Numbered from the stretch's first letter, positions 13,868 through 16,872 are shown. The stretch: DNA of 38,909 bases from a virus (IMGVR_UViG_2630968766_000008:1-38909); one strand, 5' to 3'. A program made the numbers and translations. Notes: a model not told the origin generated them from the letters alone.

Positions 13868-14431
13868 ATGACAACTCAAATCTCTGTTGAAACTCTCTCC
13901 CCGATCACCCATAACCAGATTCCTGTAATTACCACTGAACTTTTGGCGCAGCTTTATGGCACCGAAATTCTGAATATCCAGGTTAACTTCACCAGAAACA
14001 AAGAGCGTTTTGTCGCAGGAAAGCACTTTTTTAAAGCAGCGGGTGAGGAATTAAAAAAATTGCGACTTACTTTAAGTAAGTCACAAAATCCCATCTCTCC
14101 CAAAACCCGCTCCCTCATTCTCTGGACAGAACGAGGCGCAGCCCGTCACGCCAAAATGCTCGAGACCGATCAGGCGTGGGATGTGTTCGAAAAACTGGAA
14201 GACTGTTATTTCAGCCAGAAACAGCCACCAGCAGCACAAAACTCCCCCACCGAAAATGATGGATGCGCATTACTGATCCACTTCGATAAACACGGTCAGG
14301 TCGACTTCACGGAAAAAGTACCCGCCGATGCGATGGTATGCACTCTGGAACGGTTTAAATTTTATCTGGAACAACGCGGCTGGATCGTTGCCCGTAAAGA
14401 GCAGCTGGTGGAACGACTGATGCGGCTTTAA
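13868..14431 (+). CDS. ORF6N/antirepressor-like domain protein
   Basis: 187-aa ORF; N-terminal ~100 aa (ITTELLAQLYGTEILNIQVNFTRNKERFVAGKHFF...ILWTERGAARHAKML) resembles the ORF6N/KilA-N-type DNA-binding domain of phage antirepressors. Confidence 0.5.
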   Translation: MTTQISVETLSPITHNQIPVITTELLAQLYGTEILNIQVNFTRNKERFVAGKHFFKAAGEELKKLRLTLSKSQNPISPKTRSLILWTERGAARHAKMLETDQAWDVFEKLEDCYFSQKQPPAAQNSPTENDGCALLIHFDKHGQVDFTEKVPADAMVCTLERFKFYLEQRGWIVARKEQLVERLMRL

Positions 14432-14506
14432 AAATTTTCCCCGAACGCTTTACGATCGTAAAAAGTTGAATATCCTGTTAAGAGTGGTTACTACGCCACA
14501 CAGCTT

Positions 14507-14532
14507 AAACCCGCCGATGAGCGGGTTTTTTG
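14507..14532 (+). terminator. Rho-independent terminator
   Basis: AAACCCGCCGATGAGCGGGTTTTTTG. Confidence 0.55.
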
Positions 14533-14654
14533 TGCCCGAAAAGCGGTACAGGATGTTAAATGCGCTGGTGGTTGCGAATACAGGTCTTTCAGCTTGCTGG
14601 CTTTTTCGACAAGAGTTATTGGTATGTCACGTTAACCAGAAAAGGGAAAAAGAC

Positions 14655-14852
14655 ATGCTAAAACAGCAGGATATGACCGAAACTGCCAGAGTGGTATTTA
14701 ATGAATTAAGTGTCACCGAACCAGCGACCGTCGGGGAAATTGCGCAGAATACTTACCTTTCACGTGAACGCTGCCAGTTAATACTGACCCAGCTTGTTAT
14801 GGCGGGTCTGGCAGATTATCAGTTCGGTTGTTACAGACGCCTTCCGCAGTGA
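14655..14852 (+). CDS. Small winged-helix DNA-binding protein (65 aa)
   Basis: ATG 14655 with AGGGA upstream; ...ELSVTEPATVGEIAQNTYLSRERCQLILTQLVMAGL... HTH-like pattern; directly upstream of the methyltransferase. Confidence 0.4.
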   Translation: MLKQQDMTETARVVFNELSVTEPATVGEIAQNTYLSRERCQLILTQLVMAGLADYQFGCYRRLPQ

Positions 14853-15002
14853 AGGCTTTTTAATTTGTGGTAATGGGCGGCTGGTGGGTGTTAGCGGCAC
14901 CTGCCAGCCATCTGCTCATGCGTTGGGGTCACAAGCAAACCTCAGGCCCATCTGCTTTGCGCAAAAGCGGTATGAGCCTATCAGAGAAGCGCTTATTGAT
15001 CT

Positions 15003-16055
15003 ATGGCTAATACTGTAAAAATATCCAGTTGTGAGTTAATCAACGCTGATTGCCTGGAATTTATCCAGACCTTACCGGAAAACTCTGTCGATCTGATAGT
15101 CACAGACCCGCCATACTTTAAAGTGAAGCCCGAGAGCTGGGATAACCAGTGGAAGGGGGACGATGATTACCTGAAATGGCTCGACCAGTGTCTGGCGCAG
15201 TTCTGGCGGGTACTGAAGCCCGCCGGAAGTCTTTACCTGTTCTGTGGTCATCGCCTGGCATCTGACACCGAAATTATGATGCGTGAACGCTTTAATGTGC
15301 TGAATCACATTATCTGGGCGAAGCCGTCAGGACGCTGGAACAGGTGCAACAAGGAAAGCCTGCGGGCGTATTTCCCGGCAACAGAGCGCATTCTGTTTGC
15401 CGAACATTATCAGGGGCCATACCAGCCCAAAAATGACGGCTATGCGGCAAAAGAAAGGGAACTCAAACAGCACATAATGGCACCGCTGATATCGTATTTC
15501 AGGGATGCTCGTGCCGAACTGGGTATAACGGCAAAACAAATTGCCGAAGCCACAGGTAAGAAAAATATGGTTTCCCACTGGTTTGGTGCCAGTCAGTGGC
15601 AGTTGCCGAATGAGGCTGACTATCGGAAGTTACAGGCACTGTTTTCCCGTATAGCGGCAGAGAAGTTTCAGGAACAACAACTGGAACAACCACACCACCA
15701 GCTGGTGGCATCTTATGATTCACTGAATCGCAAATATTCTGAATTGCTGGATAAGTTTAAATCTCTCCGGCGCTATTTCTCCGTATCAGTCTCCGTGCCT
15801 TATACCGATGTCTGGATGCATAAACCCGTTCAGTTCTACCCGGGTAAACATCCGTGTGAGAAACCGGCGGATATGCTCAGGCAAATAATCAATGCCAGTA
15901 GTCGACCTGGTGATCTGGTTGCTGATTTTTTTATGGGATCCGGTTCCACAATAAAAGCAGCAATGGCGCTGGGGCGTCGGGCCTTAGGTGTTGAGCTTGA
16001 GTCAGAGCGGTTTAACCAGACGGTGAAAGAGGTAAGTGAACTGGTGGGGGAATAA
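15003..16055 (+). CDS. DNA methyltransferase (N6-adenine/N4-cytosine, DPPY catalytic motif)
   Basis: 350-aa ORF; motif IV VTDPPYF near N-terminus and SAM-binding FFMGSGSTIKAA near C-terminus (beta-class arrangement). Confidence 0.85.
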   Translation: MANTVKISSCELINADCLEFIQTLPENSVDLIVTDPPYFKVKPESWDNQWKGDDDYLKWLDQCLAQFWRVLKPAGSLYLFCGHRLASDTEIMMRERFNVLNHIIWAKPSGRWNRCNKESLRAYFPATERILFAEHYQGPYQPKNDGYAAKERELKQHIMAPLISYFRDARAELGITAKQIAEATGKKNMVSHWFGASQWQLPNEADYRKLQALFSRIAAEKFQEQQLEQPHHQLVASYDSLNRKYSELLDKFKSLRRYFSVSVSVPYTDVWMHKPVQFYPGKHPCEKPADMLRQIINASSRPGDLVADFFMGSGSTIKAAMALGRRALGVELESERFNQTVKEVSELVGE

Positions 16056-16105
16056 TTCTGGTGTCAGAGCTTTTATTCGCTAATTTTTTCACTGGGAGGC
16101 TATTT

Positions 16106-16363
16106 ATGCATTCACACCATCATCAAATATCTATGATCCCACTTACCATGAGTTCACCCATTAAAGGTTTTTCACTGTATGTAGAAAGCGAAGACATGGC
16201 TGTCGCTATAGCTGAGCTTGAAAATGCCTTATCACAGCTCAAGAATGGAGATAAGGCATTCAAAGAAAGTGGCACGCTGGTTGGTAACGTCAGAGCAAGT
16301 TATTGCTATCCTTACCGTCCTCATTGTGCCGCGAAAGGTCTTTATTGGGATGAAGGGGATTAA
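16106..16363 (+). CDS. Hypothetical protein (85 aa)
   Basis: ATG 16106 preceded by GGGAGG (7-nt spacer); stop overlaps the stop of the convergent minus-strand gene (TTAA). Confidence 0.35.
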   Translation: MHSHHHQISMIPLTMSSPIKGFSLYVESEDMAVAIAELENALSQLKNGDKAFKESGTLVGNVRASYCYPYRPHCAAKGLYWDEGD

Positions 16364-16872
16364 GCAAGGACTTGTTCACCGATAGTTACTGGTAACGGAC
16401 AAATGTATTCCCAGACTGGATCAGGGTTAAAAGTTTTTCCTGACCAGTAAAGCTCCATTCTGTAGGTGAATTCCAATACCGATGTATCATTTCTTAATAA
16501 TGACATATCTCCGCGATGATAACTATCTGTTTGTATTATGAAAATTTTATCTGATGGTTTTCCGTCTGTAAGTCGAAAATGTTTAGCCTCCTCCAGGTTA
16601 CCCCAGGCGAAGAGTGACGTATAGCGAGAAGGTTTTTGCGGGCAAACTCCTCTTCGGTAAAACTCAAGTCCCCAGTCGATGAGTTCGTTTTTATTATAAA
16701 TTTTTGCCGCATTATTAATGAGGTATCCTTCGCCTTGTGGAGCAAGCCCGCGCGGAAAAAGTTTGTCTACCAGAGATGACATTTCAACAGGAGTTATATC
16801 GGAGAATTGCTTTGGTGTAACGATATCGCCTGTTGAGTATATTCCTCGGCGATCAACCATAAATAGTTTCAT
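16360..16872 (-). CDS. Hypothetical protein (170 aa), divergently oriented AT-rich moron
   Basis: Only minus-strand gene inside the late region; GGAGA Shine-Dalgarno before second ATG (16872); AT-rich relative to flanks; no family recognised by eye. Confidence 0.55.
   Translation of the reverse strand: MKLFMVDRRGIYSTGDIVTPKQFSDITPVEMSSLVDKLFPRGLAPQGEGYLINNAAKIYNKNELIDWGLEFYRRGVCPQKPSRYTSLFAWGNLEEAKHFRLTDGKPSDKIFIIQTDSYHRGDMSLLRNDTSVLEFTYRMELYWSGKTFNPDPVWEYICPLPVTIGEQVLA

Follow-up and report, generated by a model that had tools for sequence, protein, structure and literature searches.

Between its Q antiterminator gene and its lysis genes, the lambdoid prophage on the 38,909-nucleotide (nt) stretch of viral DNA that we analysed (IMGVR_UViG_2630968766_000008:1-38909; hereafter the window) carries two convergent genes that form one co-inherited unit of fixed architecture, both under purifying selection. 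One gene encodes a 170-amino-acid (aa) member of the DUF2441 (BC2332-like) family with an ADP-ribosyltransferase (ART) fold, and the other a conserved partner of 85 aa. The pair is carried on a low-GC insertion of 1,013 bp (16064-17076), a moron cassette, and comparative sequence evidence makes the cassette a reasonable candidate for a new prophage conflict module. The Q-to-holin stretch as a whole is a mosaic of three independent modules and not a single unit. The first comprises an isrK/C4-type RNA locus and an ORF6N antirepressor-like gene, the second a 65-aa winged helix-turn-helix (wHTH) gene and an orphan beta-class DPPY adenine methyltransferase gene of the M.EcoGII family, and the third is the insertion with the convergent pair.

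A sequence-only reading of this interval had noted the ORF6N, wHTH, DPPY methyltransferase and convergent 170-aa genes, all of which are present as open reading frames (ORFs); it did not list the 85-aa ORF as a gene of its own. Its preferred interpretation, a type II restriction-modification (R-M) layout of controller, methyltransferase and convergent endonuclease, fails on protein fold, on co-inheritance, on the nature of the supposed controller and on the family of the methyltransferase. Its fallback, a protective orphan methylase with an unrelated moron next to it, agrees with the evidence, and can be refined to a two-gene convergent cassette encoding a DUF2441 protein of ART fold.

The DUF2441 gene and its convergent partner

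The DUF2441 gene lies on the minus strand (16360-16872), antisense to the late operon. An alternative start at 16884 would give a protein of 174 aa; the Shine-Dalgarno sequence GGAG and the homologues favour the start at 16872. The stop codon overlaps that of a neighbouring gene by 4 nt, within the sequence TTAA at 16360-16363. This overlap had been described as joining the 170-aa gene to the methyltransferase gene. It is real, but the gene on the other side is the separate 85-aa gene (16106-16363), and the methyltransferase stop codon is at 16053-16055.

The sequence-only reading could place the 170-aa protein in no recognisable family. The protein itself has no Pfam match at E ≤ 10, scans with Pfam, NCBIfam and PADLOC models gave nothing directly, and its sole match was to the PHROG family phrog_5663, of unknown function. 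It is nevertheless a divergent member of DUF2441 (PF10386), a family of the ART clan. Homologues were found in 14 clusters and then, via a profile, in 88, with a precomputed PF10386 (PF10386.17) assignment; more distant relatives reach approximately the Pfam gathering score. The family profile matched Protein Data Bank entry 2AUA (BC2332 of Bacillus cereus) with an E-value of 1e-4 when 12 sequences were used and 5.6e-13 when 80 were used. An AlphaFold2 model made from the 80-sequence alignment had a mean predicted local distance difference test score (pLDDT) of 96 and a predicted template modelling score (pTM) of 0.88. Structure prediction had been proposed as a check for a nuclease fold; an ADP-ribosyltransferase fold was obtained instead, and the protein has the same ART-superfamily fold as 2AUA. 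A fold search of BFVD returned uncharacterised phage proteins only.

DUF2441 is assigned to the ART clan in Pfam (PMC7955679) and appears in SCOP as d.166.1.6, 'BC2332-like' (PMC3000352), and a structural-genomics survey matched the active site of 2AUA to diphtheria toxin (PMC3024214). Over the 80 aligned sequences, which extend to approximately 30% identity, residues D7, E70, R73, P81, R83, D122, Y142, W143 and E155 are invariant and H119 is nearly so. The ratio of non-synonymous to synonymous substitution rates (dN/dS) of the gene is 0.06-0.21, indicating purifying selection. The window protein is only 16% identical to BC2332 and is shorter (170 aa against 224 aa), and in contrast to BC2332 it belongs to a prophage-borne enterobacterial subclade with a dedicated convergent partner gene.

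The partner gene is on the plus strand (16106-16363), in the sense of the late operon, with the sequence GGGAGG before its ATG at 16106. In Escherichia coli C311 the RefSeq annotation starts the small gene at a GTG (16061) and so gives 100 aa, and in E. coli PCP06235 a 76-aa form is annotated; the 85-aa form is the one favoured by the homologues and by the GGGAGG ribosome-binding site. The protein had no match in Pfam, NCBIfam, PHROG or PADLOC. Its structural model was of moderate quality (pLDDT 65), with a beta-beta-alpha-beta-beta arrangement and a disordered C-terminal tail (pLDDT below 50 for residues 72-85), which in the model is compatible with folding on binding. The 85-aa protein had also been proposed for nuclease-fold prediction, and a fold search with this model gave no informative match.

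The 85-aa family is very small: 21 clusters were found among 5.8 billion proteins, and an exhaustive hidden Markov model search with its profile found 11 proteins among 1.8 billion representatives. Two of these 11 are long, repetitive and eukaryote-like (P0113, 411 aa; P0114, 1371 aa). They match in four and seven repeated stretches, respectively (E = 8e-8 and 4e-7), via a helix motif A[IL]xxLExALxQL, and were regarded as spurious, probably compositional or repeat-driven, rather than as true homologues. The 85-aa protein is 59-99% identical among E. coli, Salmonella and Arsenophonus, and its gene has a dN/dS of 0.09-0.39, again indicating purifying selection. This conservation, together with the dN/dS values, rules out a spurious overlap ORF.

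Wherever the pair occurs, the small gene is in the sense of the late operon and the DUF2441 gene is antisense, with stop codons that overlap by 4 nt or abut. The arrangement is kept in E. coli, Salmonella, Arsenophonus and metagenomic or viral loci, down to approximately 39-45% identity for the small protein and 33-36% for the DUF2441 protein. In a scan of IMG/VR seeded with the small protein, DUF2441 was the convergent neighbour in 11 of 12 loci. The pair is found behind the methyltransferase gene in E. coli (the window and C311), behind a DUF1133-type Q gene and without a methyltransferase in Salmonella and E. coli PCP06235, and between RusA and a methyltransferase in Arsenophonus. It stands beside the holin gene in locus L025, where the small protein is 45% and the DUF2441 protein 33% identical to those of the window, and between the lysis genes and terminase in L039. 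Inheritance of the pair is independent of the methyltransferase.

In locus L010 the pair adjoins another antisense module. This segment (995-2722, from Q to the DUF2441 cassette) contains antisense genes for a 361/398-aa protein of no known family and a 170-aa protein with several hydrophobic segments, and may represent one more moron of defence type in this slot. Different small ORFs converge on the 3′ end of the DUF2441 gene in other subclades (L022, 4517-4729; L009, 1202-1420; L017, 3995-4222; L020, 4627-4923). One of them, of 70-72 aa, shows 90% identity between L009 and L022, of which one is an Enterobacter prophage and the other a metagenome contig. In Gordonia phage Guacamole gp34 lies beside gp33, and in Salmonella there is a 98-aa P-loop-like ORF. 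These ORFs may be other partners or just upstream late genes.

DUF2441 relatives are present in prophages of Klebsiella, Enterobacter, Serratia and Arsenophonus, and in Gordonia phages. The Klebsiella and Serratia prophages (L012-L014, 7893-8177; L024, 2170-2451 and 7497-8036) have, near the lysis genes, Acb2/Tad1-hairpin genes of a type directed against Thoeris and the cyclic-oligonucleotide-based antiphage signalling system (CBASS), and the Serratia prophage (L024) also bears a SocA_Panacea-domain gene. The late region of DUF2441 prophages therefore holds both defence-type and anti-defence-type cargo.

The limits of the insertion were given by pairwise blastn against a prophage with an empty site, that of E. 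coli 20AR1039. This prophage is 99.6% identical to the window from Q through the methyltransferase gene and lacks the cassette. The same P21-type holin gene follows 67 nt after the methyltransferase stop codon, and a 35-bp terminator-bearing spacer is found where the window has the 1,013-bp cassette. Homology with SfV, phiP27 and the records of Shiga toxin (Stx) phages also stops at window position 16063. At the DNA level the cassette was found in 7 of 5426 complete E. coli genomes and in none of 50,697 phage records. Its GC content is 0.407, against 0.47-0.49 in the flanks, and the earlier description of the convergent gene as AT-rich holds as well (GC 0.407, compared with 0.49 for the methyltransferase gene and 0.51 for the window). 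A terminator-like hairpin with a T-run (17027-17066, plus strand) lies at the cassette's right edge, shortly before the holin gene. The cassette thus has the presence/absence between near-identical phages and the deviating base composition of a moron, and also a flanking terminator-like hairpin and a predicted promoter of its own, a conserved extended -10 element. The interval itself is bounded on the left by the Q antiterminator gene (13191-13586; PF06530, E = 2.5e-52) and on the right by the P21-type holin gene (17100-17317, plus strand; PF04971, E = 5e-35), which begins the lysis cassette and is followed by the lysozyme and spanin genes.

Predicted promoter and antisense transcription

Upstream of the DUF2441 start is a conserved element that we predict, from the sequence and alignments A5 and A6, to be the promoter of this gene (16901-16939, minus strand). 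It consists of TCTGGCG, a spacer of 15-16 nt, TGATATCGT and then AAAAGTAACAAC, and its conservation exceeds that of the coding sequence. It persists in Serratia (L024) and also in L025, despite a protein identity there of approximately 33%. TGATATnnT does not vary in alignments A5 and A6, and the element's invariant positions, TGnTATnnT, are those typical of a sigma-70 promoter with an extended -10 motif. In the window, a -35-like sequence TGGCGA (16939-16934) is followed by the extended -10 sequence TGATATCGT (16919-16911; TG at 16919-16918, hexamer at 16916-16911) and by the Shine-Dalgarno sequence GGAG (16882-16879). Transcription would accordingly start near 16904 and yield a leader of approximately 32 nt containing the Shine-Dalgarno sequence.

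The -10 element of the window is bracketed by a perfect 7-bp inverted repeat, TGGCGAT/ATCGCCA, which could be an operator. Its TGGCG/CGCCA core is present in Salmonella and not in Arsenophonus. A segment of approximately 100 bp containing the promoter and leader (window 16869-16980) also precedes a different convergent pair in E. coli R1 (L015, 2493-3097), in the same Q-to-holin slot; that pair consists of a 76-aa plus-strand gene and a 92-aa minus-strand gene, neither of which belongs to any Pfam family. Approximately 250 other E. coli genomes carry the same segment. From its distribution, it looks like a common promoter module for interchangeable antisense cargo.

No convincing intrinsic terminator for the DUF2441 transcript was found inside the 85-aa gene. 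The DUF2441 and late transcripts should therefore overlap as antisense RNAs.

The methyltransferase module and the RNA locus

The wHTH gene (14655-14852, plus strand) encodes a 65-aa protein with a weak TrmB match and membership of phrog_331, and a terminator-like hairpin (14839-14856) overlaps its stop codon. The following gene (15003-16055, plus strand) encodes a 350-aa beta-class N6-adenine DNA methyltransferase (PF01555, E = 7e-43; PADLOC MTase_II, E = 3e-154). Its motifs DPPY (residues 34-37) and FMGSGS (residues 310-315, corresponding to FxGxG) are in beta-class order. At 84-88% DNA identity the two-gene block has matches in SfV (orf47/48), in phiP27 and in approximately 150 records of Stx-converting phages; 2978 of the 5426 complete E. 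coli genomes match part of a query running from Q to the methyltransferase gene. In phage 1720a-02 the wHTH protein is 100% identical and the methyltransferase is 83% identical over its full 350 aa, and the next gene is stx2A. This position is therefore a cargo slot, as the sequence-only reading had supposed from the Stx phages.

Murray et al. (2018, PMC5778455) describe the 1720a-02 enzyme as closely resembling M.EcoGII, a prophage-encoded orphan adenine methyltransferase of the beta class that is non-specific, is silent in the lysogen and is thought to guard phage DNA against restriction. The window enzyme shares with M.EcoGI and M.EcoGII an N-terminal DPPY motif, a central target-recognition domain, a C-terminal FxGxG motif, a length of approximately 350 aa and a position in the prophage late region. 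The link to M.EcoGII runs through the 1720a-02 enzyme, and the window copy is presumed to share the non-specificity reported for M.EcoGI and M.EcoGII (PMC5778455). M.EcoGIX is plasmid-borne and is not the methyltransferase of Stx phages. By these similarities the window enzyme is an orphan M.EcoGI/GII-like adenine methyltransferase of a known anti-restriction type, and not one half of an R-M system. The wHTH and methyltransferase genes would be transcribed only with the Q-antiterminated late operon, protecting progeny DNA from restriction. The module lies behind terminators, including the hairpin over the wHTH stop codon, and this fits expression only under Q antitermination.

In the R-M interpretation, the wHTH protein would be the controller, the DPPY protein the methyltransferase and the 170-aa protein the restriction endonuclease. 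The gene order is superficially that of controller, methyltransferase and endonuclease, the methyltransferase matches PADLOC 'MTase_II' models, and a methyltransferase gene adjoins the DUF2441 gene also in Arsenophonus, Serratia and Klebsiella phage KP12. The supposed methyltransferase and endonuclease genes are, however, not co-inherited. In the empty-site prophage the methyltransferase is 99.6% identical and stands directly beside the holin gene; the methyltransferase block matches 2978 E. coli genomes, compared with 7 for the cassette; and Salmonella prophages carry the convergent pair without a methyltransferase nearby. The overlapping stop codons join the 170-aa gene to the 85-aa gene and not to the methyltransferase gene, next to which no endonuclease of PD-(D/E)xK, HNH, GIY-YIG or PLD fold is encoded. 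As for a controller, no protein of Xre/HTH_3 type was found; the 65-aa protein has only its weak TrmB-type wHTH match, is identical in 1720a-02 with no endonuclease downstream, and accompanies the orphan methyltransferase in phages without any endonuclease, having stx or nothing downstream. The methyltransferase family is moreover one reported as orphan and non-specific (PMC5778455). Because of the empty-site prophage and the methyltransferase-free Salmonella pairs, we reject the R-M interpretation as highly improbable.

Upstream of these genes, three Rfam matches, all above the gathering score, lie between the Q and ORF6N genes (13614-13814). They are an isrK-family small RNA (RF01394; 13627-13704, plus strand; 68.9 bits, E = 8e-14), a C4-type antisense RNA (RF01695; 13730-13814, plus strand) and a C4 a1b1 target motif (13614-13667), the antisense RNA and target matches scoring 65.7 and 47.9 bits. 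A sigma-70 promoter-like site, TTGACC-18-TATATT (13591-13620, plus strand), and a terminator-like hairpin within isrK (13683-13699, plus strand) had been interpreted as pR′ and tR′. Both elements are present; they correspond rather to PisrK, of which the promoter-like site is the positional equivalent, and to the IsrK terminator. The ORF6N-domain protein (13868-14431, plus strand; 187 aa; PF10543, E = 2e-20; phrog_2379 'anti-repressor', E = 3e-90) is, by the layout of the locus, the positional equivalent of AnrP.

The gene order in Gifsy-1 is antQ-isrK-orf45-anrP (Hershko-Shalev et al. 2016, PMC4825925). The window shares with it a Q antiterminator gene, then the isrK small RNA and its terminator, then an antirepressor-like gene, and this common layout therefore identifies the former pR′/tR′ as an IsrK-type small RNA locus. 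Unlike Gifsy-1, the window locus also has the C4 antisense RNA and a1b1 target matches, and no isrJ match was found downstream. The isrK module is of an already known kind.

Possible functions of the pair

Our preferred explanation, held tentatively and with somewhat less than even confidence, is that the DUF2441 protein is a lysogen-expressed, NAD+-using effector and the 85-aa protein its late-expressed partner, the two constituting a prophage conflict module. In the lysogen, the ART-fold enzyme would be expressed from an extended -10 promoter of its own, and would use NAD+ either by ADP-ribosylating a target or by consuming the cofactor. Acting on a superinfecting phage or on the infected cell, it would bring about exclusion or abortive infection. 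On induction, late transcription would run head-on through the DUF2441 gene and would also yield the 85-aa partner, which would bind or neutralise the enzyme and so spare the lytic growth of the prophage itself. A weak indication, from a different subclade, is that a Salmonella DUF2441 gene has been seen in RNA-seq of uninduced cultures (PMC9867438).

We consider it doubtful that the pair is a new self-immune prophage defence in the full sense. In such a defence, a DUF2441 ART made in the lysogen would poison superinfecting phages or the infected cell, its antidote would be encoded on the opposite strand in the late operon and made only in the lytic phase, and head-on transcription would silence the enzyme gene. 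If this were true, the stand-alone 85-aa genes would be counter-defence genes.

Several observations weigh against a lysogen-expressed effector with a late-expressed partner. The conserved residues of the 170-aa protein could not be mapped onto the H-Y-E or R-S-E catalytic motifs, and an hhalign comparison with an Arr-2 sequence was non-significant (probability 0.35%) and was not used. The protein is therefore a putative enzyme. A literature search found no activity, toxicity or phenotype for any DUF2441 protein, the mentions of the name being non-functional, and PADLOC has no model for either the 170-aa or the 85-aa protein. Conservation is the sole basis for predicting the DUF2441 promoter, which a consensus promoter scan did not call. 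The 85-aa partner is missing beside many DUF2441 genes (L008, L009, L011-14, L017, L018, L020-24), and an 85-aa homologue stands alone in phage contigs L026/27 and L038; pairing is therefore not obligatory. In L029 (IMG/VR UViG_2657244961_000008; 4256-5595), where the methyltransferase, 85-aa, DUF2441 and holin proteins are 100% identical to those of the window, an IS4-family transposase gene (402 aa), presumably IS10-like, lies exactly between the convergent genes and leaves both ORFs intact. The homologue in Klebsiella phage KP12 runs in the same direction as the lysis genes. Finally, the two genes are adjacent and co-inherited, though not universally, as those of a toxin-antitoxin system would be, and they form no co-directional operon, being convergent with a 4-nt stop overlap or abutting at every locus examined. 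Such a convergent layout is atypical for toxin-antitoxin pairs.

Three further explanations were weighed against the preferred one. The pair might serve the infection cycle of the phage itself, in anti-defence or host take-over, with the ART enzyme modifying a host defence or transcription component and the small protein acting as co-factor. ART-type modification of host components is known from T4 Alt and Mod and from the anti-CRISPR AcrF11. In nearly all prophage loci, however, the DUF2441 gene lies on the strand opposite to the late operon, with a predicted sigma-70-type promoter of its own, and antisense placement is usual for lysogen-expressed morons and not for lytic-cycle genes, and we regard an infection-cycle role as rather unlikely. 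To a similar degree we doubt that the 170-aa protein is an inert ART-fold protein (binding, sensor or structural) or has an unrelated role, with the 85-aa gene a hitch-hiking accessory late gene. The strict conservation of R83, D122, E155, E70 and R73 over the 80 sequences speaks against inertness, as do the strong purifying selection on both genes and the persistence of the convergent architecture across phage backgrounds and genera.

The position of the cassette in the Stx slot also brings to mind a lysogenic-conversion toxin directed at eukaryotic cells, like Stx or the prophage-borne ArtAB. This seems very unlikely. As read from the sequences, neither protein has a signal peptide, B-subunit or secretion domain, and the 170-aa protein is predicted to be cytoplasmic; the occurrence of the family in prophages of the four enterobacterial genera named above and also in Gordonia phages points to a target in bacteria or phages. 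A type III secretion effector or exotoxin was dropped on the same taxonomic spread and absence of secretion signals.

The methyltransferase module is known, and recognising it as such corrects a tempting mis-annotation of an orphan methyltransferase as half of an R-M system. DUF2441 is likewise a known structural family: its fold is that of ARTs and a crystal structure dates from 2005, but the family has yet to be assigned a function. What appears new, in that we found no description of it in the searchable literature, is the residence of DUF2441 genes in late regions, the dedicated partner and the common promoter element. DUF2441 is a recurrent cargo of temperate-phage late regions in Enterobacterales and of Gordonia phages, and one clade carries a dedicated small partner in fixed convergent architecture. 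Natural prophages with and without the cassette, C311 or the window against 20AR1039, offer a testable entry to the function of the family, for which phage exclusion, toxin-antidote behaviour and anti-defence are the possibilities.

Among known systems, the pair invites comparison with the ART-based toxin-antitoxin and defence modules DarTG, ParST/RES-Xre and CmdTAC. It differs from them in having no sequence homology to them and no match to a PADLOC model, in having a partner that is neither a macrodomain nor an Xre-type protein, and in being organised as convergent genes with overlapping stop codons instead of an operon; its roles as toxin and neutralising partner are putative. The cassette is closer to the lambdoid morons of the Q-to-lysis slot, such as stx in 933W and 1720a-02 and the bor/lom-type cassettes. 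It shares with these the slot, the lower GC content and presence/absence among near-identical phages, and would resemble them in its predicted promoter and flanking terminator-like hairpin. In contrast to the stx, bor and lom morons, its cargo is an antisense-oriented two-gene pair, and not a secreted toxin or an outer-membrane protein.

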